From positions 2,621 to 66,620 of the forward strand of contig JAODNS010000167.1 of NCBI GenBank assembly GCA_025465145.1: a stretch of 64,000 bases of DNA, written 5' to 3'. Within the stretch, counting starts at the first letter, position 1. Every line of letters begins with the position of its first letter. The notes under the pieces are model-generated. The model made no database searches and had not been told where the DNA came from. It saw only the letters and a list, made by a program, of their open reading frames with translations. This document shows, piece after piece, positions 30,776-61,785 of this stretch. Position numbers and translations under genes: made by a program. This DNA is from Frankiales bacterium. Lineage in GTDB: Bacteria > Actinomycetota > Actinomycetes > Mycobacteriales > SCTD01.

Positions 30776-30794
30776 GCTAGGTATGGTACTAAGT

Positions 30795-30802
30795 TTGGTC
30801 CA
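30795..30802 (+). promoter_or_regulatory. TTGGTCCA motif, site 2 of 4 (GntR/SDR divergent intergenic region)
   Basis: ggtactaagtTTGGTCCAcaag lies 36 nt upstream of the SDR start (30838). A possible -10 box TAAGTT immediately precedes and overlaps it. Confidence 0.4.
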
Positions 30803-31623: not shown

Positions 31624-31627
31624 GGAC

Positions 31628-35359: not shown

Positions 35360-36576
35360 CCGAGCTTCGCGACGCCGTGATCTGCACACCCCTGCGCACG
35401 CCGGTCGGGCGCTACGGAGGGGTGTTCAAAGACCTGCCCGCCCAGTTCCTCGCGGCGACCGTCCTCCGCGGCCTCATGAACAGGACCGGTCTCGATCCCC
35501 AACAGGTCGACGACGTCATCTTCGGCCAGTGCTACCCGAACGGGGAGGCTCCGGCCCTCGGTCGGGTCGCCGCACTGGACGCCGGGCTCGGCGTAGAGGT
35601 GGGCGGCTACCAGCTGGACCGTCGTTGCGGGTCCAGTCTTCAGGCCGTAGCGCTGGCGACCATGGCCGTGCAGACGGGCGCGAGCGACGTCGTCATCGCC
35701 GGAGGTGCAGAGAGCATGAGCCAAGTGGAGCTGTACTCCACCCAGGCTCGCTGGGGCGCACGCGGGGACGGCCTCATGCTGCACGACCGGCTGTCGCGGG
35801 CACGGTCGACCGCCGGCGGCGTCCACTACCCGGTCCCGGGCGGCATGCTGGAAACCGCGGAGAACCTACGGGCCGAGTACGGCATCTCCCGCGAGGAGCA
35901 GGACGAGTACGCCCTGCGCTCGCACCAGCGCGCCGTTGCGGCGCAGCAGGCAGGGGCCTTCAACGACGAGATCGTGCCGGTCGAGGTGACCGGCCGGGCT
36001 GGGACCGTCACCGTGGACACCGACGAGCATCCCCGGGCCGACACCACCCTGGCGGGCCTGGCCAAGCTGCGACCTGTGCGGGCAGCGCAGGACCCCTTGT
36101 CCACGGTCACCGCGGGCAACTCCAGCGGGCAGAACGACGCAGCCTCCGCGTGCCTGGTCACGACGCGCGAGGTGGCCCACGACCTGGGCCTGCGCCCGCT
36201 GGGCCGGATGCTCGCGTGGAGCGTCGCCGGCGTACCGCCGCGCACCATGGGCATCGGCCCGGTGCCGAGCACGGCGAAGGTACTAGGCAGGCTCGGCCTG
36301 ACGATGGCCGACATCGGCCTCATCGAGCTGAACGAGGCGTTCGCCGCACAGGTGCTGGCCTGCGCACGCGCCTGGCAGCTCGGGGAGGGGGATCAGGAGC
36401 GCCTCAACGTCAACGGCTCCGGCATCTCCCTCGGCCATCCCGTCGGCGCAACCGGCACGCGCATCCTGGCCACGCTGCTGCACGAGATGGACCGTCGCGA
36501 GGTCGAGTTCGGCCTGGAGACCATGTGCATCGGTGGCGGGCAGGGGCTGGCGGCGGTCTTCCAGCGCGTGGCCTGA
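35356..36576 (+). CDS. acetyl-CoA C-acyltransferase (degradative thiolase)
   Basis: A 406-aa ORF with QLDRRCGSSLQAV (Cys nucleophile), NLRAEYGISREEQD, NGSGISLGHPVGATG and CIGGGQGLA. Confidence 0.9.
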   Translation: MTELRDAVICTPLRTPVGRYGGVFKDLPAQFLAATVLRGLMNRTGLDPQQVDDVIFGQCYPNGEAPALGRVAALDAGLGVEVGGYQLDRRCGSSLQAVALATMAVQTGASDVVIAGGAESMSQVELYSTQARWGARGDGLMLHDRLSRARSTAGGVHYPVPGGMLETAENLRAEYGISREEQDEYALRSHQRAVAAQQAGAFNDEIVPVEVTGRAGTVTVDTDEHPRADTTLAGLAKLRPVRAAQDPLSTVTAGNSSGQNDAASACLVTTREVAHDLGLRPLGRMLAWSVAGVPPRTMGIGPVPSTAKVLGRLGLTMADIGLIELNEAFAAQVLACARAWQLGEGDQERLNVNGSGISLGHPVGATGTRILATLLHEMDRREVEFGLETMCIGGGQGLAAVFQRVA

Positions 36577-36584
36577 CCATCGCC

Positions 36585-37016
36585 CTACCCGTCCACCTTC
36601 AGCCTGCGCGAGGCGAACTTCCACTGGCCGTCGACCCGGACGAGCTCGTCGGCGTACACGCCGAAGATGGCGATCGAGTAGCCGGCGTCCGCGTCGAGGT
36701 AGGTGAGGTACGCAGATTGGGTCGCGGTGTCGCCATTGACCTCGATGATGAAGTCCGTGACCACGTGCCGGCCGTTGACACCGAAGGTGCGCAGCAGCTC
36801 CGCGAGCTCTGCGTGCCCCGAGTAGCTCCGCCCGGCGTTCGATCGCTCGAAGAAGCCGTCCTCGGTCCAGACCGCCAGGTATCCCTGCTCGTCCAGGTAG
36901 TCGAACGCGCGGTTGTACCGAGCGCTCAGCTGCTTGATCGCCTCGATGTCATCCACGGTGGTCAGATCCCCGCCGTCAGGCCGCCGTCGACAGCGAGCGA
37001 GGCTCCGGTGATCCAC
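36585..37016 (-). CDS. NTF2/SnoaL-like protein
   Basis: The sequence DDIEAIKQLSARYNRAFDYLDEQGYLAVWTEDGFF ... VDGQWKFASRRLKVDG identifies the fold. The true start may be the GTG at 36956, because the ATG at 37016 overlaps the upstream SDR by 55 nt. Confidence 0.65.
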   Translation of the reverse strand: MDHRSLARCRRRPDGGDLTTVDDIEAIKQLSARYNRAFDYLDEQGYLAVWTEDGFFERSNAGRSYSGHAELAELLRTFGVNGRHVVTDFIIEVNGDTATQSAYLTYLDADAGYSIAIFGVYADELVRVDGQWKFASRRLKVDG

Positions 37017-37729
37017 TCCGCCTCGTCGGAGGCGAAGAACACGAACGCGTTGGCGATGTCGAGCGGCGCGCCGAGGCGGCCCAGCGGATGCGCAGCAGCG
37101 GCCTCGATCCGCGCGGCGGCCGGGTCCGGCTGCTCTTGGAAGACGACCTCGGCCATCTGCGTGTCGATGTAGCCGGGCATGACGCAGTTTACCCGGATGC
37201 CGTCCTTGGCTCCGTCAAGCGCGGCGCCCATGGTCATCATGAGCACGGCGCCCTTGGTCCCGTTGTAGCCGACGTTGTTCGGCATACCGCGGTGTGACGC
37301 GACCGAGGCCTGGTTGATGATGACACCGCCGTCGCTGCTGACCAGCAGGGGCCACGCATCGCGCATCATCCGCCACACCCCCTTCACGTTGATGTCGAAG
37401 GCGACGTCCCAGGCCTGCTCCGTCACCGAGGTGGCGCTGCCCCGCATCGTCACCCCGGCGTTGTTGGCGAGGACGTCCAACCGGCCGTGCCGTCCCTCCA
37501 CGTCAGCCATGGCGGCCGCCACCGACGCGTCATCCGTGACGTCGAGGTGCACGCTCCACGCCGAGTCCGAGCACTCGGCCGCGACCCGCTTCGCGCTCTC
37601 CTCGTCGACGTCCGTCACGGCGACCAGCGCTCCTTCCCGGTCGAACCGCCGCGCGATCTCCCGTCCGATACCCGAGCCCGCTCCGGTCACGATCGCGACC
37701 TTGCCGGCGAGACGCCCCGTCATGTGCAT
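36962..37729 (-). CDS. SDR-family oxidoreductase
   Basis: A 255-aa ORF with KVAIVTGAGSGIGRE, NNAG and YNGTKGAV (YxxxK). Confidence 0.85.
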   Translation of the reverse strand: MHMTGRLAGKVAIVTGAGSGIGREIARRFDREGALVAVTDVDEESAKRVAAECSDSAWSVHLDVTDDASVAAAMADVEGRHGRLDVLANNAGVTMRGSATSVTEQAWDVAFDINVKGVWRMMRDAWPLLVSSDGGVIINQASVASHRGMPNNVGYNGTKGAVLMMTMGAALDGAKDGIRVNCVMPGYIDTQMAEVVFQEQPDPAAARIEAAAAHPLGRLGAPLDIANAFVFFASDEAEWITGASLAVDGGLTAGI

Positions 37730-37808
37730 TCCTCTCGTCTGTCAGTGCAGATGGTTCTGCGCAGGCGCGCCGGCGCGCCGGCGGCGCCGACGGCCCGAGG
37801 TGCCGAAG

Positions 37809-38480
37809 TCATGCGGTGGTTCGCGGCGCTGAGTTGCGGATGTGCGCCGCGACGAGCTGCTGAGCGCGCGCGGCATGACCTTTGGCGATGGCCTCGACGA
37901 TGCGCTGATGCTCCTCGAACGCCGCAGCGGCGCGCTGCTCCGACGCAGCGGAGCGGTACCTGGCCAACGCGAGCTGCTGCTGCGTCTCGCGGGCCCGCTG
38001 CTCGAGCAGGGGGTTGCGGGCAATGGCGAGGACGACGCCGTGCAGATCCGCCGCGGCGCCCTGCGGATACCCCGCGCCGTGGAGCGCCACCGCCGGCCGA
38101 GCGGCTTTGAGGACCTCGCGCAGCCGCTCCACGTCCTCGGGCGTACGACGTTGTGCAGCCAGCCGGCCGGCCATCCCCTCACAGGCTTCCCGGAGCTCGT
38201 ACAGCGCCTCGATCTCCGCCCGGGTGAGCTTCGGCACGTGCCATCCTTTGTTGGTGGCATGCCTGACCAGGCCCATGCTGCTGAGCTGACCGAGGGCCTC
38301 CCGGATCGGGCCCCGGCTGATCTCGAGCTCCTCCGCGATGGCCGCCTCGGACAGTCGCTGCCCTGGCACGTAGAAGCCCTGGACCAGCCTGGCCTGCAGG
38401 AGCTCCGCGGCCTGGGCGCGCAGGGAGAGGGCAGCCAGCCCGAGGCCGCCACTGCGCTCCTGCCCGGGACCGGAGGGCAT
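37809..38480 (-). CDS. GntR-family regulator, FadR subfamily
   Basis: A 223-aa ORF. The HTH is RLSEAAIAEELEISRGPIREALGQLSSMGLVRH, and the C-terminal domain is FCD-like. Confidence 0.8.
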   Translation of the reverse strand: MPSGPGQERSGGLGLAALSLRAQAAELLQARLVQGFYVPGQRLSEAAIAEELEISRGPIREALGQLSSMGLVRHATNKGWHVPKLTRAEIEALYELREACEGMAGRLAAQRRTPEDVERLREVLKAARPAVALHGAGYPQGAAADLHGVVLAIARNPLLEQRARETQQQLALARYRSAASEQRAAAAFEEHQRIVEAIAKGHAARAQQLVAAHIRNSAPRTTA

Positions 38481-38486
38481 ATCGGG

Positions 38487-39884
38487 TCAGCTGGCCGAGT
38501 CAGTCGCGGACGACAGGCGACGGAGGAGCGCACGCAGGTCCTCGGTGCCGGCGGCCGTCGGGTCGCCCAACAGCGTGTCGGCCAGGGCAGCCACGTCCTC
38601 GGTCCTGCGATCAGGCGAGACGATGCCCAGGAAGGTCTCACGCGCCGCCGCCAGGTCGCGGAACAGCAGGGTGCGGGGCAGGTCCCACGACGCGGCGGAG
38701 ATCTCTCCCCCGGCGTGCCGGACGTGCACCCGACCGTCCACGTAGTCGTAGTCGGGCTCCGGCTGCACCCGCAGGCAGTCGACCAGCCGCAGCATCGCCG
38801 GATCGTCGAGCGCCTCGTCGTAGACCTCGGCGGTGATCTCCCCGCGGAGCAAGGAGGTCGCGACGGCGAAGGCGGTGCTCGCCATCGCCTGCGCCCGCCG
38901 CTCAAACGGCCCTCGGTAAGAGGTGCCCGGGTACGAGGAGAACTCCGCGTTCTGGTGCACCACGATCTCGGTGATCGACGACGGATCATCGATCCTGCTG
39001 GAGAGCTCGCAGGCCGCCAAGGACACGGCGATGTTGTCGCCGAGGGTGGGGAAGGCCTTCTCCCACACCGTGAGGATTGTCGCCTCCTCCGGCGCGGTTG
39101 CCCAGCCGGGCGGGGGCTCCGTCCCTGCGAACGCGCGGGCGAACCCCTTGTCCCCCTCGAGGGCGGTGGGGCTTCCGACCACGCCCCCCCGGGCCAGGAG
39201 GGCAGCCACTGCGCCCCGCCATGCCGCCGAGCCGTTCTGGACCCGCCAGTCGTCCGCTCCGGTGCGTACCGGCTCGAGCGTGCCACCGGCCATGTCGGAT
39301 GCGATGCCGATGGCGCTGGCCGTCTGCTGCACGTCCAGGCCCAGGACCACGGCGCCCGCGACGGCGGCGCCCACAGGGCCCAGCGTCGGGCTGGCCCGCA
39401 GTCCGCGTGCGACGACGGCACGGCCGATCTGCTCCTCGGCGCCCAGCCAGTTCAGTGCCGCGTAGCCGGCCACGAGCCCGCGCAGCGCCGTGTCCAGTGA
39501 TGCTCCGTGCGCCTCGGCGAGACCGAGGGCGACTGGCGAGATCATTGACCCGGGATGACTCCAGGAGGTCATGTCGCAGTCGTCCTGGAAGTGCGCATGG
39601 GCGGCCACCCCGTTGCACAGGATGGCGTCGAGCATCGACAGCGCCGCGCCGTCGGCCCAGACGGTCGCAGTGTTCGCCTGCGCGTTTTCGCTGAACAGCG
39701 CCCTGGTGGCAGCCGCGGTGTTCTCCGTGCCGCCCTTGACGGCCAGCCCGAGCGCGTCCAGCAGGCACACGGCCGCCTTCGTCTGCACCTCGGGCGCCAG
39801 TCTCTTGGTCTGCATGCGCACCGCGAACTCGGCGAGGATCCGTGTCGCAGGCGCCGTCACTGGTTCACCCTCCGCTCCCGGCAA
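38487..39884 (-). CDS. MmgE/PrpD-family protein (2-methylcitrate dehydratase-like)
   Basis: A 465-aa ORF with LLDALGLAVKG, GVAAHAHFQDDCD, SWSHPGS and other PrpD-family sequence throughout. Confidence 0.85.
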   Translation of the reverse strand: MPGAEGEPVTAPATRILAEFAVRMQTKRLAPEVQTKAAVCLLDALGLAVKGGTENTAAATRALFSENAQANTATVWADGAALSMLDAILCNGVAAHAHFQDDCDMTSWSHPGSMISPVALGLAEAHGASLDTALRGLVAGYAALNWLGAEEQIGRAVVARGLRASPTLGPVGAAVAGAVVLGLDVQQTASAIGIASDMAGGTLEPVRTGADDWRVQNGSAAWRGAVAALLARGGVVGSPTALEGDKGFARAFAGTEPPPGWATAPEEATILTVWEKAFPTLGDNIAVSLAACELSSRIDDPSSITEIVVHQNAEFSSYPGTSYRGPFERRAQAMASTAFAVATSLLRGEITAEVYDEALDDPAMLRLVDCLRVQPEPDYDYVDGRVHVRHAGGEISAASWDLPRTLLFRDLAAARETFLGIVSPDRRTEDVAALADTLLGDPTAAGTEDLRALLRRLSSATDSAS

Positions 39885-39897
39885 ACCTCGACCGGCG

Positions 39898-41346
39898 TCA
39901 CCTCTTCGCCGCCACGATGTCGCTGCCGGACAGCCGTCCCAGGATGGCGCCCTTGAGCACGGACGTGGAGCCGACGTACGTGCCGAAGTACGTCCCGACG
40001 ATCTCCCCGGCGGCGTAGAGCCCGGGGATGACGCTGCCGCCGGTGTCGATGACCGAGCCGCACTCGTTGACCTTGAGGCCTCCGAAGGTGAAGACGTTGG
40101 CGCACGCGATAGGGTACGCCTTGAACGGCCCCGTGCCGATCTGCCTGCTCCAGTTGGACTTCGGCACCTCGAGATCCGATGTCCGCAACCCGTCGAGTGT
40201 CAGCGGTGAGAACCCTGCGGGGTCGGGGCAGGAGGCATTGAACTCGTCGACCGTTGCGAGGAGCGCTGCCTTGGGCACCTGCAGCAGCCCGGCGAGCTGC
40301 TCGAGGGTCTGCGCCACGATGGCGGGCTGGTCGGTGCGGATGCCCAGCTTGTGGTTGGGGACGTCCTCGACCCCGGCGTCCAGGATGATCCAGGCCTGAC
40401 CCCCTGGCTGCTCGAGGACGCGACGCGTGATCGCCTCGTACGTCGCGTCGACCCGCCCGGGTGCCTCGTCGGTGAACCTCTTGCCGTCTGCGTTGACCAG
40501 GATCCCGTACGGGAAGATGAACAGCGCCGGCTCGGCCACCCCTGACCGCGGATCGATCGGCTCGGCGTGGAAGAGGTTGAAGTCACCGCTGGTCGTGGCG
40601 CCAGCGCGCAGCGCCATCTCGATGCCCTCACCCCGGTTGTAGTAGCCGCCGCGCGCGATCGGCCTGGCGAAGTTGGCGCGGTCGACGTAGCGGGACAGCA
40701 TCTCAGGGTTGCCTTCGAAGCCGCCGCAGGCGAGTACCACCTGATCCGCCACGATCGTCGTGGCTCGGCCGGCACTCCGGCACCGCAGCCCGGCCACCCG
40801 GCCGTCCTCGTCGAGGACCAAGTCCACCGCCTGCGTCTCGTAGTGGATGTCGATCGCGTGCTGGAGCGCTTTGGCCGTCAGGGCCTCGACCAGCGCGGCG
40901 CCGCCTCCGACCGGCGCGAGCCGCGTCGTCGACACCGTGATGAACGGCGGGGACGCCTCGCTAAAAGCCACCCCCTGGGTCTGCAGCCACTTCAGGGTGG
41001 GTCCCGCGGCAGCCGCCCAGGCAGAGATGACAGCGGGGTCGACGATGTTGAGCGTCTTCGACACCGCCGTGCGGCGCGACGCGCCGTACAGCAGCTCACC
41101 CGCGATGGCCGGGTCCACGTTGTAACCCATGGCCCCGTGGAAGCGCTCCTCGAAGTCGTCCGACACCTCGTCGACGGACTTCATGCGCAGAAAGGCTTCG
41201 GTGTACCTCGTGTTGCCCCCCGCCTCCGGGGCCGTGGCGCGGTCGATGAGCGCGACCGAGAGGCCGGCCTCGGCGATGGTGACGGCGGCCGTGAGCCCCG
41301 CGACACCCATGCCGACCACCGCGGCGTCGTACGTCTTCCCTGGCAC
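39898..41346 (-). CDS. FAD-dependent oxidoreductase, tricarballylate dehydrogenase TcuA-like
   Basis: A 482-aa ORF with YDAAVVGMGVAGLTAA (GxGxxG), GGNTRYTEAFLRM, LACGGFEGNPEML, the C-terminal FTFGGLKVNECGSVI and GLYAAGE. This is the fumarate-reductase/TcuA-type flavoprotein layout. Confidence 0.8.
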   Translation of the reverse strand: MPGKTYDAAVVGMGVAGLTAAVTIAEAGLSVALIDRATAPEAGGNTRYTEAFLRMKSVDEVSDDFEERFHGAMGYNVDPAIAGELLYGASRRTAVSKTLNIVDPAVISAWAAAAGPTLKWLQTQGVAFSEASPPFITVSTTRLAPVGGGAALVEALTAKALQHAIDIHYETQAVDLVLDEDGRVAGLRCRSAGRATTIVADQVVLACGGFEGNPEMLSRYVDRANFARPIARGGYYNRGEGIEMALRAGATTSGDFNLFHAEPIDPRSGVAEPALFIFPYGILVNADGKRFTDEAPGRVDATYEAITRRVLEQPGGQAWIILDAGVEDVPNHKLGIRTDQPAIVAQTLEQLAGLLQVPKAALLATVDEFNASCPDPAGFSPLTLDGLRTSDLEVPKSNWSRQIGTGPFKAYPIACANVFTFGGLKVNECGSVIDTGGSVIPGLYAAGEIVGTYFGTYVGSTSVLKGAILGRLSGSDIVAAKR

Positions 41347-41376
41347 AGCTCATCTCCTCGCGGTCGGGTCGACCGG

Positions 41377-41994
41377 TCAGGCCCGGTCAGCCAGCAGGCT
41401 CACGAAGTCCTGCGTCGAGATCACATGCGCGAACGCCGGCAGCGTCGACTGGATGGAATGGGTGTGCAGGGGCTCCGGGGCGGCGCAGGCGTCCGCGATC
41501 ACTGTGGTCTGGAAGCCCCGGTCGGCCGCCTCCCGCACGCCTGACTCCACCGCGAGGTGGGTCGCGACGCCCGCGATGTACAGCTGCGTCAGACCCCGCG
41601 AGGTGAGCACGGCGTGCAGGGCGGTCGACGCGAACGGGCTCACCGACCCCTTGCTGACCACGAGCTCGTCGTCCGCGGGCGTGACCTCCTCGCAGAACTC
41701 GGCGGACGCCGACCCGAGGAGGAAGCGCCGGTTCTTCTCGTGGTCGTCGAACCGGGCTGTGCGGTTGGTGCGTGCGGCGTAGGCCGGGTCGAACCCGAGT
41801 CGGACGTGGATGACCTCGACTCCGGCCTTGCGGGCAGCTGCCAGGCAGACCCCCGCGTTCGCAAGGACGTTGCCTTCGTCGACCGCGGTGGACAGCGGCG
41901 TGGGATCCGGCGACCCCTTGCACAGGCCGTTCTGCAGGTCGACGAGCAGCAGCACCTGTCGACCGCCCGCTCCTGGACTCACCATGCGCTCCAA
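41377..41994 (-). CDS. isochorismatase-family cysteine hydrolase
   Basis: A 205-aa ORF with VLLLVDLQNG and LYIAGVATHLAVESGVREAADRGFQTTVIADAC. Confidence 0.8.
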   Translation of the reverse strand: MERMVSPGAGGRQVLLLVDLQNGLCKGSPDPTPLSTAVDEGNVLANAGVCLAAARKAGVEVIHVRLGFDPAYAARTNRTARFDDHEKNRRFLLGSASAEFCEEVTPADDELVVSKGSVSPFASTALHAVLTSRGLTQLYIAGVATHLAVESGVREAADRGFQTTVIADACAAPEPLHTHSIQSTLPAFAHVISTQDFVSLLADRA

Positions 41995-42773
41995 CCTCCG
42001 TCTGCATACAGGACCTGGCCTGTGACGTAACGAGACGCCGACGACGCCAGAAAGGCAACCACCCCGGCCAGATCAGCCTCGGGGTCCCCGAGCCGCCCAA
42101 CCATGGTGCGCGCGCTCCTCTGCGCGAGCCGCTCCGGTGACGCTGCGAGCGGTGCCGTCATCTCCGTCGGGTAGAAGACTCCCGGGGCTAGGCAGTTGAC
42201 CCGCACTCCCTGTGGACCCCACTCCATCGCCAGACCCCTACTGAGGTTGGCGACCCCTGCCTTTGAGGCGTAGTACGCCGACTCGGGGATCGGCCCGACG
42301 ATCTGCGCGTACAGGGTGGACGTGTTGACGATGCTGCCGCGACCGGCGGCCAGCATGCCGACGGCCACGGCCCGGTTGAGCAGCCACGTGCCGGTCAGGT
42401 TGATGTCAATGACGCGCTGCCAATCCGACAGCTCCGTGCCGATGGCCGGACCACGGAGCATGACGCCGGCATGGTGCACCAGCACCGACACCGAGCCCAT
42501 GCGCTCGGAGGCCTGCTGCACGAGGGCGTCTACGTCCGACGAGTTGCTGACGTCGCACGCCACCGCGCTTATTTGGGTGTCGTGACAGCGCTCCTCCACC
42601 GCCTTCACCGTTGCCGCCAGATCCTCCGCCCTCGACGCGATGTCGCTCACGACGAGGGTCGCGCCGAGATCAGCAAGCGCGAGAGCGGTGAAGTGACCGA
42701 GGCCGCCGCGACTCGCCCCCGTGAGCAGGACCGTCTCCCCGGACAGGTCGAACATGCTGCGGTAGTCATCCAT
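41979..42773 (-). CDS. SDR-family oxidoreductase
   Basis: The start MDDYRSMFDLSGETVLLTGASRGGLG is at 42773. The catalytic motif is YYASKAG (YxxxK). The ORF overlaps the upstream gene by 8 nt. Confidence 0.8.
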   Translation of the reverse strand: MDDYRSMFDLSGETVLLTGASRGGLGHFTALALADLGATLVVSDIASRAEDLAATVKAVEERCHDTQISAVACDVSNSSDVDALVQQASERMGSVSVLVHHAGVMLRGPAIGTELSDWQRVIDINLTGTWLLNRAVAVGMLAAGRGSIVNTSTLYAQIVGPIPESAYYASKAGVANLSRGLAMEWGPQGVRVNCLAPGVFYPTEMTAPLAASPERLAQRSARTMVGRLGDPEADLAGVVAFLASSASRYVTGQVLYADGGWSAW

Positions 42774-43704
42774 GGGCGCCGCTGCTCCTCTCCCACTGCT
42801 GCGTGATGGCGTCCTCAACCGCGTCGAAGTCCTCCAGCCTGACAAGCCGCTGTCGCTCGTCCCAGGCGACGAAGTGCTGGTCGCGGCTCGCCGACTCCCC
42901 GGTCTGGTGCAGGTGCCGCAGGATGTCCCCCGCGGTCTTCATCACCGACCGCAGCACGAGATTGGCGTGCAGGATCAGCCGGTAGCCCATGGCGGCGACG
43001 TCCTCTACCGAGAGGTCCGGCGTCACGCCGCCGGGAACGATGTTGATGAGCAGCGGGATCCCGGGCAGCTCGGCCGGGATGCGCCGGACATCCTCCTCGG
43101 TGGGTGGCGCCTCTACGAAGAGCACGTCGGCACCTGCCTCCGCGTAGGCACGTGCGCGCCGCAAGGCCTCGTCGAGTCCGTGCACCGCGACCGCGTCGGT
43201 ACGCGCGATGATGAGGAAGCCCACATCGGAGCGAGCACGGACCGCAGCATCAATCTTGGCCTGCATGGCGCCGGTCTCGATGACGTTCTTGCCGCTGAAG
43301 TGCCCGCACCGCTTGGGCATCGTCTGGTCTTCGATCTGGATGCCGGCGACGCCGACCGTCTCGAGCGTCCGCACTGCGTGCATCACCGTCGTCGGCCCAC
43401 CGAAGCCCGTGTCGATGTCGACGATCAGGGGGACTGTCGTCGCGGCGCAGATGCGCAGCGCCTGCGTCGCGACCATGTCGAAGGACAGAAGACCGACGTC
43501 AGGAGCGCCGAGCTGGGAATTGGACAGGCCGGCCCCCGTGAGGTACAGGGCGCCGAAACCGGCATTCTCGGCGAGAACCGCTGTCAATGCGTCGTAGATG
43601 CCTGGCAGCACGACCGACTCGCCCGCTGCCAATCGGCTGCGCAGGCTAGAGCGCCGCGCCGAGGGGCTGACACCGCTGTGCAGCACTGGCGGCAGCGTCG
43701 TCAC
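42766..43704 (-). CDS. isocitrate lyase/PEP mutase family enzyme (methylisocitrate lyase PrpB-like)
   Basis: A 312-aa ORF with LPGIYDALTA, YLTGAG, IVDIDTGFGG, GIQIEDQTMPKRCGH and IIARTDA, all signature segments of the ICL/PEPM family. Confidence 0.85.
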   Translation of the reverse strand: MTTLPPVLHSGVSPSARRSSLRSRLAAGESVVLPGIYDALTAVLAENAGFGALYLTGAGLSNSQLGAPDVGLLSFDMVATQALRICAATTVPLIVDIDTGFGGPTTVMHAVRTLETVGVAGIQIEDQTMPKRCGHFSGKNVIETGAMQAKIDAAVRARSDVGFLIIARTDAVAVHGLDEALRRARAYAEAGADVLFVEAPPTEEDVRRIPAELPGIPLLINIVPGGVTPDLSVEDVAAMGYRLILHANLVLRSVMKTAGDILRHLHQTGESASRDQHFVAWDERQRLVRLEDFDAVEDAITQQWERSSGAHG

Positions 43705-43761
43705 GGGCGTAGTGCCGCGGCGGGCAGCACCGACGACCGCGTTGCTGAAAGCGACGTCACG

Positions 43762-44826
43762 TCACACATTCCGCGTCCGTGTTGCCGCGAGACGCGACAG
43801 GCCGACCGCCAGCACGAGGACGCCGCCCTGGAAGACGGGCTGGACCCAGAACGGGGCACCGTTCAGCTGGAGTCCGTTGAGGCCCACGCCCACGAACAGG
43901 ATCGCAACAACGGCGCCGATGACGTTGAATCGCCCAGGGGTGTGCACCGTTGCACCCAGGAAGGCTGCGGCGAGCGACGGCAGCAAGAAGTCGGGGCCGA
44001 GCTGCGGTGAGGCAGAGCCGACGCGACCTACCACCAGCACACCGGCGATGGACGCGCTCAGGCCCGAGACCACGAAAGAGGACATGATCAGGGCTCGGGT
44101 CTTGACCCCCGTGAGGCGGGCTGGTTCGCGCCCCAGCCCCGTTGCGTACAGCCGACGACCGAGCAGCGTCTTCGACAGCGCGAACCACATTCCGACCGCG
44201 AGCAGGACCGCAAGGACGGTGATGGCCGGCAGCGGACCGTAGTAGCCCTGACCGAACTGCGTCAGCGCCTTAGGGATGTTGGAGAACAGGACCTCTCCGT
44301 TGCTCAGCAGCAGCGAGATGCCGGAGGCAATCGTTCCCGTGGCGAGCGTGACGATAAAGGAGTTGATGCCGGCGTAGCCGATGAGGATGCCGTTGATCAG
44401 GCCGACACCCAGTCCAACACTAAGGGCGATCAGCAGCGCAGGAAGGAACGGCATGCCCTCGCGACCCGCCAGCACGGCGATCGTAACGGCGGACAGACCG
44501 GTGAGGAATCCCAGCGACAGATCGAACTCACCCACCACCAGCGGGACCAGCGCACCCAGAGTGAGGATCATCAGGATTGCGTTTTCACCTGCGATGTTCT
44601 GGAAGTTGATCGCCGTTGGGAACGTGTCGGTGTTCGTGATCGTGAAGACGATCGCCAACAGGACGAGCGTGACCAGAACCGCGTAACGGCTCAGCAGCGT
44701 TTCCAGAACGTGGGCAGCTCGTCCGCGCCGCGGCGGGGACTGGGGCTCCCCTGACAACTGGGAGAGTGGCCTGCCGGGGTCGGCCGCGACGAGGCTGCCA
44801 CCAGGTTCAGTCATGTGTGTCCTCAT
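43762..44826 (-). CDS. ABC transporter permease (monosaccharide/CUT2-type)
   Basis: A 354-aa polytopic membrane protein resembling RbsC/XylH-type permeases. Confidence 0.85.
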   Translation of the reverse strand: MRTHMTEPGGSLVAADPGRPLSQLSGEPQSPPRRGRAAHVLETLLSRYAVLVTLVLLAIVFTITNTDTFPTAINFQNIAGENAILMILTLGALVPLVVGEFDLSLGFLTGLSAVTIAVLAGREGMPFLPALLIALSVGLGVGLINGILIGYAGINSFIVTLATGTIASGISLLLSNGEVLFSNIPKALTQFGQGYYGPLPAITVLAVLLAVGMWFALSKTLLGRRLYATGLGREPARLTGVKTRALIMSSFVVSGLSASIAGVLVVGRVGSASPQLGPDFLLPSLAAAFLGATVHTPGRFNVIGAVVAILFVGVGLNGLQLNGAPFWVQPVFQGGVLVLAVGLSRLAATRTRNV

Positions 44827-46423
44827 CTCGGGGGGATCCCGCCGCGATCAGCGCTTCGAGCTCTGATACGGACAGGCTTGCAGCGTCGAGCCATCCGCCG
44901 AGACGGCCGTCGCTCACGATGGCGACGGAGTCTGCGACGTCGAGCACCTCCTCCACCTCGGAGGAGATGACCAGCACGGCGGCGCCGGCCGCCGCACGGG
45001 CGCGTAGCATTCCGTGCAGGTGAGCGCGCGCGACGATGTCGACTCCAATGGTGGGCTCGTCGACGATCAGCACCGGCGGGTTCGTGGACACGGCCCGCAG
45101 GAAGACCACCTTCTGCTGATTCCCGCCGCTGAGCATCTTGATCAGCGTCCGCGGCCGCGGGGGCACCACCAAGTGCTCGCGCAGCAGCTGCTCATCAGCC
45201 TTGTGCAGCCGACGCTCGTGCCACAGGCGGGAAAGTTTGTCCGAGCTGTCCGCGGCCACCCGCGCCTGACCCAGGTGCAGGTTCTCCGACAGGCTCATCT
45301 CGTGCACGACGCCCTGCCGTTCGCGGTCCTGCGGCACGTAGCCGATGGCTGCGGAAACGGTGGAGCTTCCGATGTCGCCGAGGCGCTGCCCGTCGTACTG
45401 GATCGTTCCGGAAGTCGGACGCTGCTGACCCGCCATCAGGCGTCCGACTTCGCTCTTACCTGAGCCGACCCGACCCGTGATTCCGAGGATCCGTCCCGCC
45501 ACCAGAGCGAGATCGAGGTCTCGAACGGTGTAACCGGCAACGTTCTCCGCAACAACCCGGACGGCGCCTCGGGGCTCGTCCGCTGCGACCACGGCCGGCG
45601 GCGTCGCCGGAGAACCCTCGGTCAACGTCCCCGCGGAGAAGCCGGCGGCGCCGAAGACGAGGTCGGTCAGTGCGGCCATGGACAAGTCTGCTGTGGGCTC
45701 ATGCGCGACGACGGTGCCGTCCCGCAGCACGACCACCGAGTCTGCTGTCGAGAACACCTCCTCGAAGTGATGCGTGACGAACACGACCGCTACTCCGGAG
45801 GCGGCGATATCGCGGACGTGGCCGAGGAGGACAGCGATCTCCTCACCCGGTAGGGCGGCGGTCACCTCGTCGAGGATGAGCACGGACATCGGGGGAACTC
45901 CGGGCGGCCCGTACGACGCTCTGGCGACGCCGGCGATGACACGTTCGTAGGGACGCAGCTCCCGGACGGGTACGTGGACGTCGAAGGCACCGCTGAAGGA
46001 CTCGACGGCCTTCTGGACCTCGCGACCCCAGGCGCTGCGACGGACACGAGTGCCGTTGCGAAGGTCGTTCTGGCCGAGCATGACGTTGTCGAGGGTGGAG
46101 AAGTCATCGACGAGACCCAGGTCCTGGTGCACCACGCGGAGTCCCGCGTGGTGCACCAGGCGAGGGTCGCACGGCAGTGCGATCTCCTGGCCGTTGACGC
46201 TGAACGCCTTGGCGCGTGCCCCTCGGTGGTACCCCGAGAGGCTCTTGATGACGGAGGACTTCCCGGCGCCGTTCGGCCCGACCAGCGCCGTGACCTCACC
46301 GCCGCCGACAGCCAGGCTGATCCCGCGCAGGACAGGGTTTCCCTGGATCTCCAGCTCGAGGTCGTCGACCTGGAGAAAGACGTCTGCCACTGGTTCCCCT
46401 GCTGGCTGCGCGGGCCTTGTCAT
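44807..46423 (-). CDS. ABC transporter ATP-binding protein with duplicated ATPase domains (RbsA-like)
   Basis: A 538-aa ORF. The first domain has the Walker A motif GPNGAGKSS. The second has GRVGSGKSE, the signature LSGGNQQK and ILDEPT/VDEPT Walker B motifs. Confidence 0.9.
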   Translation of the reverse strand: MTRPAQPAGEPVADVFLQVDDLELEIQGNPVLRGISLAVGGGEVTALVGPNGAGKSSVIKSLSGYHRGARAKAFSVNGQEIALPCDPRLVHHAGLRVVHQDLGLVDDFSTLDNVMLGQNDLRNGTRVRRSAWGREVQKAVESFSGAFDVHVPVRELRPYERVIAGVARASYGPPGVPPMSVLILDEVTAALPGEEIAVLLGHVRDIAASGVAVVFVTHHFEEVFSTADSVVVLRDGTVVAHEPTADLSMAALTDLVFGAAGFSAGTLTEGSPATPPAVVAADEPRGAVRVVAENVAGYTVRDLDLALVAGRILGITGRVGSGKSEVGRLMAGQQRPTSGTIQYDGQRLGDIGSSTVSAAIGYVPQDRERQGVVHEMSLSENLHLGQARVAADSSDKLSRLWHERRLHKADEQLLREHLVVPPRPRTLIKMLSGGNQQKVVFLRAVSTNPPVLIVDEPTIGVDIVARAHLHGMLRARAAAGAAVLVISSEVEEVLDVADSVAIVSDGRLGGWLDAASLSVSELEALIAAGSPRDEDTHD

Positions 46424-47563
46424 TTACCCGATGCCCCAGAGGGCCAGGTACTTGCTCTGGTAGTCGGCGCCATCACCGGCGCCGGTGAACGCCTCGCCCT
46501 TGGCGGGAAGCGTTACCTTGTCGAGCAGCTTGATGGGGAGGTTCTCGGCGGCGAGCGGCTGCTTGTTGAGCAGTCGGATGGCCTGGTCGACGCCGGCCCA
46601 GCCGAGCCATGCCTCAGGGGTGGCGGCATCGGCAACCAGCAGCTTGCCCTCTCGGATGTAGTTCAAGGCGTCGCTGGTCCCGAGCTGGGAGTACATGCGC
46701 TGGGTGAGGCGAGCGTTGATCATGTTGGGAGCGACCACGGTAACGATCGGGTCGAACGGCAGGTACACCGTGTTGATCTCCGGGTTGGACTGCAGCGCCG
46801 TCACCACGCTCTTGGAGACCGACGTGCCGATCTCGGCTGCGGTGAACTTGATGTCCTTGACCACCTTGCACTTGGTGCACTTGGCCACGGTGGCGAGCAT
46901 CGATGCGGTGATGGCCTTGGCGTAGCCAAACTCCTGGTTGTTCATGTTCAGGAGCTTGAGATCGCCCCCGGCGTCGACGACCATCCTGGCGCCAAGCGCC
47001 TCACCCACAGCCTTCGCATCGGGCGTGACGTCGGCGTCGTAGCCGTTAGTCGGGTCCACCGGGTTGTTCTCGATCAGGCTGATCAGCAGAGTGCCCTGCG
47101 CCTTCGCCGCCTTGATGGCGTCGCCGACCAGGCTTGCGTTGATGCCGGTAGCCAGGATGGCGTCCGGCTTGTCGACCAGGAGCGACTTCATGCCGCCGTT
47201 GTACTTGCTGGGCTCGTCAACCACGACGGTCTTCTGCGTCCAGCCGAGCTTCTTCACTGCAGCCTGAATCGCCTCCGTGGGCAGGCGGCAGCCCTCGAGC
47301 GCAAAGCTGCAGCTGAGGATGCCGACCTTCTTCCCGGTCGGGGCCTTGGCCGCCTCCGTAGGGCCGTTCCAAGCCACCGGGGCGGTGTACTTCTGGACGA
47401 GATCCTGGAACTCCGCCAGGTCGCCGCCGGCAGCCGCCGAGGCGCCTGCCGACGCGGCGTCGGTCGAGGGCGCGGCGGTGTCCCCGGCGTCCTTGCTGGA
47501 GGCACACGCGCTGGTGGCGAGCGCCAGGAACGCCAGAGGGGCGGCCCACTTGAGACGGTTCAT
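46424..47563 (-). CDS. ABC transporter substrate-binding lipoprotein (periplasmic-binding-protein type I, RbsB-like)
   Basis: A 379-aa ORF with a strong SD (AGGAGGAAGC) before the ATG. The signal peptide MNRLKWAAPLAFLALATSAC carries a lipobox-like Cys. Confidence 0.85.
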   Translation of the reverse strand: MNRLKWAAPLAFLALATSACASSKDAGDTAAPSTDAASAGASAAAGGDLAEFQDLVQKYTAPVAWNGPTEAAKAPTGKKVGILSCSFALEGCRLPTEAIQAAVKKLGWTQKTVVVDEPSKYNGGMKSLLVDKPDAILATGINASLVGDAIKAAKAQGTLLISLIENNPVDPTNGYDADVTPDAKAVGEALGARMVVDAGGDLKLLNMNNQEFGYAKAITASMLATVAKCTKCKVVKDIKFTAAEIGTSVSKSVVTALQSNPEINTVYLPFDPIVTVVAPNMINARLTQRMYSQLGTSDALNYIREGKLLVADAATPEAWLGWAGVDQAIRLLNKQPLAAENLPIKLLDKVTLPAKGEAFTGAGDGADYQSKYLALWGIG

Positions 47564-47668
47564 GCTTCCTCCTGATCGTGACCAAGTCGGTCCGTCACGG
47601 GATGCTGGAACCGAAACATCTCCGCGTCGGGCGCAACTGTCTAGAGAAACATGTCATCTGTCAACAGT

Positions 47669-47676
47669 CGGACCAA
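47669..47676 (-). promoter_or_regulatory. TTGGTCCG motif, site 3 of 4, next to a TTGACA -35-like box upstream of the ABC operon
   Basis: The minus strand reads AATTTTGGTCCGACTGTTGACAGATGACATG. The motif ends 4 nt before TTGACA, about 100 nt upstream of the SBP ATG. Confidence 0.4.
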
Positions 47677-47680
47677 AATT

Positions 47681-47716
<36 letters not shown>

Positions 47717-48667
47717 ACCGCGCCGGAGTCGAGTCAGCCGGCGGCGCTTGAGGACGTCCGGCGGGAAGAGCCCCGCCATCAAGCGGAGGTCGCTCCACGC
47801 GTTCAGGGGCGCACACGGCGTCGAGGTCCGGCCCGAGGGCCGCGACGATGTCGCGCTCCTGGTCATCGGTATGCGTCTCGATGACGTCACGCGCCGCCGC
47901 GCCGCCGCGCCGGCTGCGGTCAGGCTGCCCCCGGCTCCCAGCCGCAGTCCTCGAGAGACCGGACTGCCCTGTACAGCACAGCCGGCTGCCAGGAACGGGT
48001 GGTGGAGTAGCTCGGGAGCGGGTGACCGAGCCACAGCTCGGTCACGACGTTCATCGCCGACGGGGTCGACGCCGGCGTCGCAGCCCGCGATGACATGACT
48101 GTCCCCCCGGTGCTCCTGTACCAGGTCGCACGCCCACCAGGGCCGATGAACGGCGTCCGCCGGCCGCGCCCGCCCCCGCAGCCGCGCGAACAGCGGCCGG
48201 CCGGTGGCATCGGCCCGCGCCGTCGCCTCGCAGAGGAGCTCAGCGACAGGGCCAAAGTCCTCGCCCTCCAGCACCAGGCCAGGCTGTGCCGCGTCGCCTC
48301 GTCGCGCGTGCGCACGACCAGGTCACGGGACGCCGCAGCGCGTGCCGCTTCGTACACCGACGCCAGCACCTCCGGGTCGAACCACGCGAAGGTGGCCGCC
48401 ACCACGGCGGGCGAGGGGTCGCCGAGGTAGGCAGCCCGCCCGGCGAGTAGGCGCCGAAGAAGTCGAGGCGCAGCCCGGCCCGCGCCGTACTGGTGTGCCG
48501 ACTCCAGACGGCGTGCACAGCGATGGGCTCGCACGCGTCGCGGAGCCGGCGCGCCGGGCTGGCCAGCCGGACCGCCTCAGGCGCCACCGCACGTCGGGAT
48601 CAGAGCCGTAGAAGGTGGCGATCGCCTCGTCGTAATCCATCTGCACTCCTTCGCGCTGCAGTGGCAG

Positions 48668-49543
48668 TCAGGCGAGCCGGGAGCGCTCCTCGTCTCTCAA
48701 GGAGATCTCGGCGACGTGCAGCCCGTCGTCGAACTGCCGCGACGGGTAGCGCTCCCACAGCTTGTTCTCGTGGAACGGGATGATCCTGGGGATGTCTCCG
48801 CCGACAAGCTGGAACATCTCCTCCATGGTGAGCAGGCACTTGGTGATGCTGCCTGAAGCCAGGCCGATGGGGATGAACTGGCCGTTCCCGTCGTGGCCCT
48901 CGAGGTTCTCGTAGGTGGTCACGTTGTCACCCGACAGCACGAAGCGCTCTGAGGTGGGCTGGTCGACGACGACGTACTGAGAGCCCAGGGTGTGGGTGTC
49001 GTGCGAGGGGTTGACCCGGATCCCGGGCAGGATCTGCGCGTCGCCGTCCAGCAACGTGAGCCGGCCCTCCCTCCAGCAGTCCAGCATCGTCAGGAGGTCG
49101 TCGGGGTCGCACGCGACCATCAGCCACTGCAGCCGCTGGGGCAGCGACCTGGTCCAGAGGAACTTGCGGACCTCGATCTCCTGGATGTACACGTGCGCGT
49201 TGGGAAAGGCGTCAACGTTGCCGGCGTGGTCGAAGTGGTTGTGCGTGAGGATGACCGTGTCGACGTCGGCCGGATCAACCCCGAGACGTCCGAGGACCAC
49301 CTCGGGAGGTTGCCATCCGGAGACGCCGTACTCGTCGGCCAGCACGCGGCCGAACTCCGCGTAGTTGTAGCCGGTGTCGACCATGACCGTGTGCTCGTCG
49401 TTCTTCAGCAACGCGTAGCAGAAGGGGAGGATCATCGTCCCCGAGTTGTGTCGGCCGTACAGCGCCCCGCTCACGGGGAACTCCAGCACGCGGGCGTACT
49501 CCGCGATCCAGATCGAGTAGCCGGCCCCAAGGGTGGAGGTCAC
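48668..49543 (-). CDS. MBL-fold metallo-hydrolase (N-acyl-homoserine-lactonase-like)
   Basis: A 291-aa ORF with the HxHxDH motif ILTHNHFDHAGN. A GTG start overlaps the upstream stop (GTGA). Confidence 0.8.
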   Translation of the reverse strand: MTSTLGAGYSIWIAEYARVLEFPVSGALYGRHNSGTMILPFCYALLKNDEHTVMVDTGYNYAEFGRVLADEYGVSGWQPPEVVLGRLGVDPADVDTVILTHNHFDHAGNVDAFPNAHVYIQEIEVRKFLWTRSLPQRLQWLMVACDPDDLLTMLDCWREGRLTLLDGDAQILPGIRVNPSHDTHTLGSQYVVVDQPTSERFVLSGDNVTTYENLEGHDGNGQFIPIGLASGSITKCLLTMEEMFQLVGGDIPRIIPFHENKLWERYPSRQFDDGLHVAEISLRDEERSRLA

Positions 49544-54024: not shown

Positions 54025-54027
54025 CGG

Positions 54028-56047: not shown

Positions 56048-56076
56048 ACACTAAGGCCCACCGCCCCGAGAGTCAA
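56048..56076 (-). promoter_or_regulatory. sigma-70/HrdB-like promoter candidate TTGACT-17 nt-TAGTGT for the ACAD-led operon
   Basis: On the minus strand the -35 box TTGACT occupies 56071-56076 and the -10 box TAGTGT occupies 56048-56053, with a 17-nt spacer. The promoter lies about 70 nt upstream of the ATG at 55976. Confidence 0.45.
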
Positions 56077-56080
56077 TAAT

Positions 56081-56088
56081 TGGACCAA
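56081..56088 (-). promoter_or_regulatory. TTGGTCCA motif, site 4 of 4, directly upstream of the -35 box
   Basis: The minus strand reads CTTCTTTGGTCCAATTATTGACT. The motif ends 4 nt before TTGACT. Confidence 0.4.
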
Positions 56089-61772: not shown

Positions 61773-61785
61773 CGGGGTTGACCTC

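Follow-up and report, generated by a model that had tools for sequence, protein, structure and literature searches.

A 64,000-nucleotide stretch of a Frankiales bacterium contig (JAODNS010000167.1), referred to here as the window, carries on its minus strand a co-directional gene array in which a sugar-type ABC importer stands ahead of enzymes of organic-acid metabolism, among them a TcuA-related flavoprotein, an MmgE/PrpD-family protein and a lyase of the PEP-mutase/isocitrate lyase (ICL) family. An earlier note on this DNA had read the array as one self-contained route for a tricarboxylate-like acid, from import to carbon–carbon cleavage. We find instead that the array makes up the distal half of a larger catabolic island, which spans at least ~18 kb (window ~30.0–47.7 kb) and is composed of two modules that are also found apart elsewhere. 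Rather than to the acid enzymes, the importer belongs to the neighbouring set of MaoC, hydrolase, SnoaL, CoA-ligase and thiolase genes; the island is a recurrent pairing of two separable modules, and the joining of a sugar-type ABC system and acid enzymes in one operon is a lineage-specific arrangement. For the acid enzymes we tentatively propose, at somewhat short of an even chance, a CoA-independent route that would desaturate, hydrate, oxidise and cleave a hydrophobically substituted succinate made by the CoA module.

Two modules of a catabolic island

The array consists of the following genes, given in the order in which they are read:

46424–47563, minus strand: substrate-binding protein (SBP) of the carbohydrate uptake transporter 2 (CUT2) type; Peripla_BP_4, 53 bits; N-terminal signal peptide ending in Cys, lipoprotein-like
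44807–46423, minus strand: fused double ABC ATPase, CUT2 type; two ABC_tran domains
43762–44814, minus strand: ABC permease; BPD_transp_2; 8-nt overlap with the ATPase gene
42766–43704, minus strand: PEP-mutase/ICL-family lyase; PEP_mutase (180 bits) and ICL
41979–42773, minus strand: SDR1, a classical short-chain dehydrogenase/reductase (SDR); adh_short, and adh_short_C2 at 197 bits
41377–41985, minus strand: isochorismatase-family protein; Isochorismatase, 129 bits
39898–41346, minus strand: soluble FAD_binding_2 flavoprotein; top NCBIfam model TcuA
38487–39860, minus strand: MmgE/PrpD protein; MmgE_PrpD_N and MmgE_PrpD_C
37809–38480, minus strand: GntR/FCD regulator, inside the operon; GntR and FCD domains
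36962–37723, minus strand: SDR2; found by Pfam and by independent gene calls; 91% identical in the related locus L073
36585–36956, minus strand: SnoaLb, SnoaL_4 (NTF2-like), found by Pfam; last gene of the array

Pfam and NCBIfam scans found all nine gene families that the earlier note had named, and independent gene calls on identical public contigs confirmed the array, with the GntR/FCD regulator falling just outside the point at which the array had been said to start. Adjacent genes overlap by 7–8 nt or are separated by gaps of at most 85 nt, and the array runs on past the regulator, on the same strand, through SDR2 to SnoaLb. The window has a G+C content of ~70%, and codon-position G+C marks one clear coding frame per region; the coding frame of the isochorismatase-family protein is 41377..41994, rather than the open reading frame (ORF) 41387..42100.

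Convergent to the array is a CoA-dependent operon (30838–36576), whose genes overlap by 4 nt or lie at most 4 nt apart, with a second regulator divergent from it:

30838–31623, plus strand: SDR0
31628–32497, plus strand: MaoC hydratase
32494–33306, plus strand: alpha/beta hydrolase
33303–33707, plus strand: SnoaL protein
33707–35359, plus strand: AMP-forming acyl-CoA ligase
35356–36576, plus strand: thiolase
30017–30775, minus strand: second GntR/FCD regulator; both domains present

Where the two operons converge, 8 nt separate the stop codon of the thiolase gene from that of the SnoaL_4 gene (36576/36585), and a scan of 36000–49000 detected no terminator-like structure.

We define the core of the acid module (module A) as the lyase, an SDR, the TcuA-like flavoprotein and the PrpD-like protein, to which an isochorismatase-like protein is often added. 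The earlier note had made conservation of the gene neighbourhood a check on its proposal, and four to five of these enzyme genes are indeed co-located, at 40–72% protein identity, in independent loci from several classes:

L006/L069, L074, L075, L080 and L086: Actinomycetota metagenome-assembled genomes (MAGs)
L038: Tessaracoccus sp. OS52
L067: Baekduia soli
L007: Acidimicrobiaceae MAG
L072: metagenomic contig
L068: Propylenella binzhouense, an alphaproteobacterium

The block is spread over Actinomycetota, Thermoleophilia and one alphaproteobacterium at 40–90% identity, usually with the isochorismatase-like protein present too and with SDR1 orthologues at 49–67% identity, and the whole island is co-located at 66–93% identity in a Mycobacteriales MAG. 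Its smallest form is a tight PrpD–PEP-mutase–SDR–FAD operon (L074), in which the PrpD-like and lyase genes overlap by 4 nt; the minimal operons L074, L075 and L086 have no isochorismatase gene. In Baekduia soli the PrpD-like protein and the lyase form a single fusion polypeptide of 760 aa (L067 10001–12283, CP042430.1), a classic indication that the two act together.

Several loci show further peculiarities. Downstream of the Baekduia soli fusion are genes for an SDR, a Cys-less isochorismatase, the flavoprotein and an Asp/Glu-racemase-like protein, and the opposite strand carries a gene for a Baeyer–Villiger-type monooxygenase resembling flavin-containing monooxygenases. At L075 11416–14457 a 1013-aa TIR-domain/WD40-beta-propeller gene stands between the PrpD-like and lyase genes of an operon that is minimal in other respects; by its appearance it is a defence-type gene that has come to lie within a metabolic operon. 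The SDR of Propylenella binzhouense is a 57-aa fragment only (L068 4760–4933), in a locus with two extra FAD_binding_2 genes, and the SDR step may have been lost or pseudogenised there.

The separation of the two modules is clearest for the transporter. The SBP family is rare (17 homologues found), and three of its contexts were examined. In L080 the transporter, a hydrolase of the metallo-beta-lactamase (MBL) fold and the acid enzymes share one operon, as transporter and acid enzymes do in the window, with divergent hydrolase, SnoaL, CoA-ligase and thiolase genes. In L082 the three transporter genes, whose operon is 52–69% identical to the window proteins, lie mid-operon between MaoC, hydrolase and SnoaL genes on one side and SnoaL, CoA-ligase and thiolase genes on the other; the acid module was not found within 10 kb of this transporter. 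In L081 the partners of the SBP are a phosphotriesterase (PTE)-type lactonase, an HpcH lyase, a zinc-dependent alcohol dehydrogenase and two SnoaL proteins. Because the SBP family co-travels with CoA genes, in L082 without the acid module, we assign the transporter to the CoA module, and the self-contained route that was to include the importer does not stand. The acid module for its part occurs without a transporter in L067, L074 and L075 with HAAT-type systems in L068 and L072, and in Proteobacteria with tripartite tricarboxylate transporter (TTT) binding proteins. In L072, L007 and L080 the acid module is found together with orthologues of the hydrolase, SnoaL, CoA-ligase and thiolase genes; L072 and L007 have either another type of binding protein or none that was detected. 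SnoaLb orthologues (52–66% identity) stand beside CoA genes and transporter in L007, L072, L080 and L082.

The importer has the CUT2 architecture, combining a cluster-B SBP of ribose-binding fold with a fused double ATPase and a BPD_transp_2 permease. An AlphaFold2 model of the SBP (pLDDT 87) adopts the ribose-binding-protein fold, and its Foldseek matches are sugar and polyol SBPs at only 13–22% identity; the best NCBIfam matches of the ATPase (YtfR, AraG, XylG and RbsA) are all far below their cut-offs. In the family alignment of the SBP, the Cys pairs C85/C92 and C229/C232 and the tryptophans W108, W319 and W322 are invariant, which may represent disulfides and an aromatic ligand pocket, respectively. 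An NCBIfam search of the SnoaL proteins and the SBP gave no useful match, and the only meaningful solved relative of SnoaLb, its closest PDB entry, is Rv3472, of unknown function.

Literature searches on this combination of genes did not turn up a description of the cluster, in line with the earlier judgement that this is not a described pathway. The specific module is thus undescribed in the literature searched; all of its component families are known, and as a catabolic island that includes an importer and regulators of the GntR family, the cluster is of an ordinary type.

Active-site signatures of the acid enzymes

The lyase scores 268.8 bits against the prpB model TIGR02317, below the cut-off of 354.4. 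The catalytic and Mg residues of E. coli PrpB (Y43, D58, D85, D87, E115, K121-R-C123-G-H125, R158, E188 and N210) are kept in the window protein and eight orthologues, and R241 is kept in all module lyases but that of Propylenella, which has Gln there and Lys in place of R122. Since the PrpB catalytic and Mg residues checked are kept, we take the enzyme to be a C–C lyase and not a P–C mutase. [quoted passage not shown] The motif N-x-(I/V)-x-G-G-x-T-P reads NIVPGGVTP in the window lyase, NMIEGGKTP in PDP and NMVEHGATP in DMML. PDP is the best solved-structure match, but the E-values against PDP, DMML and methylisocitrate lyases are alike and the assignment thus rests on the signature residues, by which the enzyme is predicted to be of PDP/DMML type. 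In the product complex of PrpB, T212 and R270 presumably bind the distal carboxylate of succinate, although a preprint on Coxiella PrpB names no ligands for this carboxylate; if they do bind it, their replacement implies that the leaving group would be a monocarboxylate with a non-polar side. The tricarboxylate substrate suggested previously is disfavoured by the same residues, the nine module lyases having Val/Phe and Trp/Phe in place of Thr/Arg. The dimethylmalate lyase reaction is also the last step of nicotinate fermentation in Eubacterium barkeri.

The PrpD-like protein belongs to a clade of ~105 database clusters at 40% identity or more, with the next matches at 37% or less, and of 61 loci in a scan of one genome per species (~185,000 species-representative genomes); most of its proteobacterial members are found in other gene contexts. 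It has no NCBIfam match, only the Pfam superfamily domains, and BLASTP gave no collinear alignment with E. coli PrpD. Its closest solved relative is iminodisuccinate (IDS) epimerase. Characterised MmgE/PrpD enzymes all use a C4 1,4-dicarboxylate backbone with protonation or deprotonation at C2, and the epimerase site comprises a catalytic His, a second-base Tyr and the carboxylate ligands His, Asp/Glu, His, Lys and Lys (PMC12290011). The clade fails this residue signature, since the second-base Tyr and several carboxylate ligands are replaced. Specifically, Asp88, Tyr145, His150 and Lys198 of IDS epimerase correspond to Phe91, Val150, Arg155 and Trp205/Arg206. The invariant residues of the clade are H88, F91, D93, D94, H102, R155, R206 and K268, of which His88 and His102 match the conserved carboxylate-binding and catalytic histidines; Trp205 is conserved to at least 90%, and Val150 was not among the residues scored for conservation. 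A Delftia member of the clade stands beside an acyl-CoA dehydrogenase, a MaoC hydratase, a family III CoA-transferase and an HpcH lyase, families that also make up the itaconate/methylsuccinate degradation cluster.

The flavoprotein scores 324.9 bits against the TcuA model NF006130 (cut-off 369) and 183 against TIGR02485 (cut-off 372). It is 33–37% identical to annotated tcuA genes on plasmids and 47–59% identical within its own clade, which has at least 488 metagenomic relatives. By sequence comparison we place it in the fumarate-reductase/TcuA family, as a TcuA-related but distinct clade. A Variovorax locus carries a tcuA gene, so named by PGAP, and a member of this clade side by side as separate genes. 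The labels TcuA-like, PrpD-like and PrpB-like therefore hold at the level of superfamilies and fail as statements of orthology, given scores below the cut-offs, the low identity to tcuA and the absence of a PrpD alignment. As had been noted before, no ORF for a TcuB-type (CCG/Fe-S) or MFS TcuC-type protein was found among the window ORFs scanned with Pfam; the homologous loci scanned likewise gave no TcuB or TcuC domains.

To describe the company that the flavoprotein keeps, partners within 5 kb were counted at 21 metagenomic loci with at least 3 kb of sequence on both sides. An SDR is present at 18 of the 21 (directly adjacent in 12), an Asp/Glu-racemase-family gene at 13, carboxylate-type TTT binding proteins at 13, further FAD_binding_2 paralogues at 11 and a Cys-less isochorismatase-family gene at 10. 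Such company is consistent with recurrent redox steps and additions of water on free carboxylic acids. The flavoprotein clade is accompanied by an aconitase and a CaiB-type transferase on plasmids of Cupriavidus and Agrobacterium, and in Agrobacterium also by a citryl-CoA lyase, sets that follow the same desaturate–hydrate–cleave logic with different enzymes.

A betaproteobacterial flavoprotein cluster is found on plasmid 4 of Variovorax sp. SRS16 (L077) and at the metagenome loci L091, L094, L118 and L161. It has two to three FAD_binding_2 paralogues (one of them the PGAP tcuA), an SDR, a Cys-less 'cysteine hydrolase', TTT binding proteins and an Asp/Glu-racemase-like gene, of which Variovorax has two. 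In Variovorax the plasmid further encodes an MmgE/PrpD protein from another clade, and the cluster is flanked by an argininosuccinate-lyase-like gene and an ABC system for amino acids. NCBIfam gave nothing useful for the Asp/Glu-racemase-like partners from other loci. We considered whether the flavoprotein might be the 'Fox' of Variovorax thiodipropionate catabolism and dropped the idea: the paper describes Fox as a 2-hydroxy-acid dehydrogenase without a direct part in that pathway, and names neither an isochorismatase nor a racemase.

The isochorismatase-fold protein has Asp16 and Lys112, and at the position of the nucleophilic Cys it has Ala145. Among solved structures it is nearest to three cysteine hydrolases, TrtA, BiuH and RutB, whose Cys aligns to this Ala. 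In 30 homologues encoded beside the flavoprotein clade the Asp and Lys are invariant and the Cys position is occupied by Ala (8), Val (18) or Gly (4). Because the nucleophilic Cys is missing, the known thiol-amidase/esterase mechanism is excluded, and the hydrolase for a lactone, ester or amide envisaged by the earlier note is contradicted by the absence of this residue in all 30 homologues. Maleamate chemistry of the nicotinate type was rejected for the same reason. We take Asp and Lys without Cys to be the pattern of the true, vinyl-ether-hydrolysing isochorismatases. In SDR1 the residue at the end of beta-2 is Asp, which suggests a preference for NAD.

A tentative route and its alternatives

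How might the two modules work together? In our proposal module C, comprising the CUT2-type importer, MaoC, the alpha/beta hydrolase, the two SnoaL/NTF2-like proteins, the CoA ligase, the thiolase and SDRs, would import a compound, probably neutral or cyclic, and degrade it in part via CoA thioesters. Module A would then dispose of a free acid built on a succinate (1,4-dicarboxylate) backbone that bears a non-polar substituent. The TcuA-related flavoprotein, acting independently of TcuB, would make a C=C bond beside a carboxylate; the PrpD-like enzyme would add water or isomerise, a step that the Cys-less isochorismatase-fold protein may perform where it is present; NAD-linked oxidation by the SDR would follow; and the PDP/DMML-like lyase would split the 2-hydroxy (or 2-oxo) acid so formed, giving a 2-oxo acid together with a monocarboxylic acid. 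The latter could be activated by the CoA ligase and so return to the CoA module. Such a sequence would be CoA-free and would resemble beta-oxidation or the TCA cycle, and the two FCD-type GntR regulators would control the operons. The order of steps, the class of substrate, the regulation and the direction in which material passes between the modules are what we infer here, as distinct from the gene content, conservation, fusion and active-site signatures described above. The sequence of FAD-dependent desaturation, PrpD-type water addition and C–C cleavage, already put forward in the earlier note, stays the best hypothesis, being favoured by the fusion, the minimal operon and the aconitase and citryl-CoA-lyase neighbours; what would have to be revised in that idea are the class of substrate, the role of the hydrolase, its self-contained character and the position of the transporter.

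Several observations weigh against the proposed route. A PEP-mutase-family gene is near the flavoprotein at only 2 of the 21 loci and a PrpD-family gene at 1, so the core logic of the flavoprotein may not need the hydratase/lyase pair. The substrate-binding residues of fumarate reductase are not recognisably conserved in the flavoprotein, and the mapping is ambiguous: whether R298 or Y303 is aligned to R402 of Fcc3 varies with the template, and R298 lacks conservation across the clade. An electron acceptor partner for the flavoprotein is not apparent. The active site of the PrpD-like protein (F91, V150, R155 and W205/R206) is unlike that of every characterised member, and the protein could be an isomerase or decarboxylase rather than a hydratase. 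For the lyase, the role of T212 and R270 is a presumed one, and what was checked is the sequence pattern that separates methylisocitrate lyases from PDP/DMML. More generally, the enzyme clades of the module are uncharacterised as to substrate, product and activity, and a sugar-type importer is an odd match for an acid substrate.

The window is also dense in beta-oxidation-type genes, and part of the adjacency could reflect this general genomic context. Taken further, the acid genes and the transporter/CoA genes might be functionally unrelated neighbours in a region rich in catabolic genes. That the acid module occurs alone in L074, L075 and L067 and the transporter/CoA module alone in L082 agrees with this, as do the many other beta-oxidation-type genes in the window. 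However, the two are co-located in at least five lineages (window/L073, L080, L072, L007 and in part L067) with differing gene orders and transporters, the transporter genes head the acid-enzyme operon in both the window and L080, and the window's acid operon closes with SDR2 and SnoaLb, which in other loci are found with the CoA genes. We consider a chance association distinctly unlikely. Very unlikely, too, is the self-contained tricarballylate or methyl-tricarballylate pathway, with sugar-type ABC import, a TcuA orthologue yielding an aconitate analogue, PrpD hydration and PrpB-type cleavage to succinate and a 2-oxo acid. TcuA and prpB are indeed the best NCBIfam models for the flavoprotein and lyase, and the flavoprotein clade is often beside TTT binding proteins and sometimes beside an aconitase, but neither score reaches its curated cut-off (325 against 369 and 269 against 354), annotated tcuA is only 33–37% identical and is a gene distinct from this one in Variovorax, the Thr/Arg of methylisocitrate lyases is Val/Trp in this lyase, alignment of the PrpD-like protein with E. 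coli PrpD fails, and the transporter lies outside the conserved acid module. A variant methylcitrate cycle for propionate detoxification would bring together the PrpD and PrpB superfamilies, both of which belong to that cycle, with a window rich in genes able to yield propionyl-CoA. We give it hardly any credence: methylcitrate synthase (PrpC) and aconitase were not found in or near the cluster, the lyase falls below the prpB cut-off and lacks the methylisocitrate-lyase signature, the PrpD-like protein has no NCBIfam match and a different active site, and the flavoprotein, isochorismatase-fold protein and importer would have no role in the cycle.

A rival of a different kind, unlikely in our estimate and yet less so than these, is the cleavage of a heteroatom-substituted succinate, i.e., an O- or N-(1,2-dicarboxyethyl) substrate such as a malate ether, an N-substituted aspartate, or a compound resembling iminodisuccinate, ethylenediaminedisuccinate (EDDS) or an opine. 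Here the PrpD-like protein (elsewhere the Asp/Glu-racemase-like one) would epimerise the substrate, the flavoprotein would oxidise it to an enol ether or enamine, the Cys-less isochorismatase-fold enzyme would hydrolyse this vinyl ether or enamine by EntB/PhzD chemistry to oxaloacetate and an alcohol or amine, the SDR would oxidise the freed alcohol and the PEP-mutase-family enzyme would handle the keto acid. The retention of Asp and Lys without Cys in 30 of 30 isochorismatase homologues, the Asp/Glu-racemase-family genes near the flavoprotein at 13 of the 21 loci and the position of IDS epimerase as nearest solved relative of the PrpD-like protein are all better explained in this way than by the desaturate–hydrate–cleave route. 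L-aspartate oxidase belongs to the same flavoprotein superfamily; the Variovorax version is flanked by the argininosuccinate-lyase-like gene and amino-acid ABC system; the pairing of SDR and isochorismatase would mirror EntA/EntB; and the release of a sugar-like alcohol would suit a CUT2 importer. However, the isochorismatase gene is missing from the minimal operons, the PrpD-like clade lacks the second base Tyr145 of the epimerase and has Arg for His150, and these organisms are not known to have a natural substrate of this kind. The PrpD–lyase fusion, which implies coupled consecutive steps, and the hydrophobic pocket signature of the lyase are also left unexplained.

The desaturate–hydrate–oxidise–cleave route can be extended to a broader claim, which we think improbable as a whole: that module A is a widespread and unrecognised CoA-independent 'free-acid beta-oxidation' of alkyl- or otherwise substituted succinates with three new enzyme functions. 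These would be a dehydrogenase for substituted succinates that works without TcuB; a hydratase or enol(ether) hydrolase of Cys-less isochorismatase fold and/or an Arg-rich hydratase of the PrpD clade; and a bacterial alkylmalate lyase of PDP type. Methyl- or alkyl-succinates from itaconate reduction or anaerobic fumarate addition would then be example substrates, as would paraconic or butenolide lactones of lichens or fungi that module C supplies in ring-opened form. Strigolactone or butenolide D-rings, paraconic acids, anhydro-sugar acids and monoterpene-derived acids as substrates are speculation. Pyridoxine catabolism was considered and rejected, the scores of B6-transporter, pyridoxal-dehydrogenase and pyridoxolactonase models being far below their cut-offs.

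The active-site signatures of three enzyme clades exclude the functions that their names suggest, and the Cys-less isochorismatase-fold subfamily is at present auto-annotated as 'cysteine hydrolase'. If the proposed route is right, functions would follow for three sizeable uncharacterised clades (the TcuA-related flavoprotein, the Cys-less isochorismatase-fold protein and the distinct MmgE/PrpD protein). It would also provide a CoA-free route for branched or substituted C4-dicarboxylates, adding to what has lately been recognised of methylsuccinate/itaconate metabolism in soil bacteria, as well as a physiological role in bacteria for lyases of the petal-death-protein type and a 'sugar-type' CUT2 importer that serves CoA-dependent catabolism of a non-sugar compound. 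Cultured carriers, namely Baekduia soli, Tessaracoccus sp. OS52 and Propylenella binzhouense, make the module experimentally tractable.

Candidate regulatory elements, neighbouring genes and known systems

Upstream of the SBP gene are a decayed HTH_67 gene, the MBL-fold hydrolase and a further minus-strand CoA operon. The candidate regulatory elements and the intact features of this side are:

47660..47676, minus strand: candidate operator/promoter element TTGGTCCGACTGTTGAC, upstream of the SBP gene; its GTC-N8-GAC core overlaps a TTGACA −35-like hexamer
48668–49543, minus strand: MBL-fold hydrolase, Lactamase_B; last gene of the upstream minus-strand operon
51707–55976, minus strand: operon of acyl-CoA dehydrogenase, enoyl-CoA hydratase, CoA-transferase III and thiolase-like genes
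56072..56088, minus strand: second candidate operator copy TTGGTCCAATTATTGAC, upstream of the 51707–55976 operon

The element TTGGTCCGACTGTTGAC lies within a 27-nt block that is identical in L073, a relative at 81% identity, in which the flanking spacer has diverged. The 17-nt motif represented by TTGGTCCGACTGTTGAC and TTGGTCCAATTATTGAC, TTGGTCC-N-A-Y-T-N-TTGAC, has two sites in the window against 0.07 expected, both in promoter regions. Its octamer core TTTGGTCC has three window sites against 0.36 expected, one of them at 30794–30801, in the divergent promoter of the second GntR gene and SDR0. This distribution suggests a common FCD-GntR regulon across ~30–56 kb (~26 kb) as a candidate, and the island may extend to 56 kb. 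A consensus promoter and terminator scan gave nothing above background.

The MBL-fold hydrolase has weak matches to the 4-pyridoxolactonase and AiiA models, i.e., of lactonase type. Its gene lies within the transporter/acid operon in L080 and adjoins the PrpD-like gene in L072, and we tentatively include it in the island. Between it and the SBP gene, the HTH_67 regulator gene (47654–48640, minus strand) is decayed: the match to the intact 301-aa L073 orthologue changes between two frames at least four times (frame −3 at 48426–48280 and 48063–47938, frame −2 elsewhere), which reflects either a pseudogene or a locally poor assembly. The 3' end of this gene contains a (GACGGC)n hexanucleotide repeat (~47690–47735, minus strand) that codes for Asp-Gly repeats and stands directly upstream of the conserved promoter block; the orthologous region of L073 does not have it. 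Farther away, at least 13 kb from the island, are an FMN reductase and a luciferase-like monooxygenase on one side (15757–17589) and a second luciferase-like monooxygenase with a PF04199 cyclase-family protein on the other (60750–62826). L072 also carries a PF04199 gene near its acid module.

Several known systems invite comparison with the island. The importer shares the layout of SBP, fused double ATPase and BPD_transp_2 permease with CUT2 importers such as RbsABC and the polyol systems of Mycobacterium smegmatis, but its SBP belongs to a small family whose genes, in the contexts examined, always stand beside SnoaL, hydrolase and CoA-ligase genes rather than sugar kinases or isomerases. With TcuABC of Salmonella enterica the flavoprotein shares the FAD_binding_2 family, TcuA being the top curated model, and presumably also desaturation beside a carboxylate of a succinate-type moiety. 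It has an SDR, a Cys-less isochorismatase and an Asp/Glu-racemase-like protein as neighbours, whereas the TcuB electron-transfer partner and TcuC were not found here. The isochorismatase-fold protein has the fold of the cysteine amidohydrolases RutB, BiuH, TrtA and NicF and keeps their Asp and Lys, with the Cys replaced; the vinyl-ether hydrolases EntB and PhzD have the same fold, and the chemical likeness to them is a conjectured one.

The PrpD-like protein differs from IDS epimerase and the (S)-(R)-methylsuccinate isomerase (PMC12290011) in lacking the second base (Tyr145/148) and the Asp/Glu that follows the first His, and in having Arg for His150/152 and Trp-Arg for Lys198/202. As in the methylcitrate cycle, the PrpD and PrpB superfamilies occur in one operon and the lyase has the complete catalytic apparatus of isocitrate and methylisocitrate lyases, but here there is no PrpC, the lyase pocket is of PDP/DMML type, and the PrpD-like protein has Arg155 and Arg206 for the His and Lys of the family. 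The lyase resembles PDP of Dianthus and DMML of Aspergillus niger; shared features of the module lyases are the motif N-x-(I/V)-x-G-G-x-T-P and, where PrpB has R270, an aromatic residue. The same reaction is expected of it, i.e., cleavage of a 2-alkyl- or 2,3-dialkyl-malate to a 2-oxo acid and a monocarboxylate, but the module lyase is encoded in a bacterial operon together with a flavoprotein, an SDR and a PrpD-like protein.

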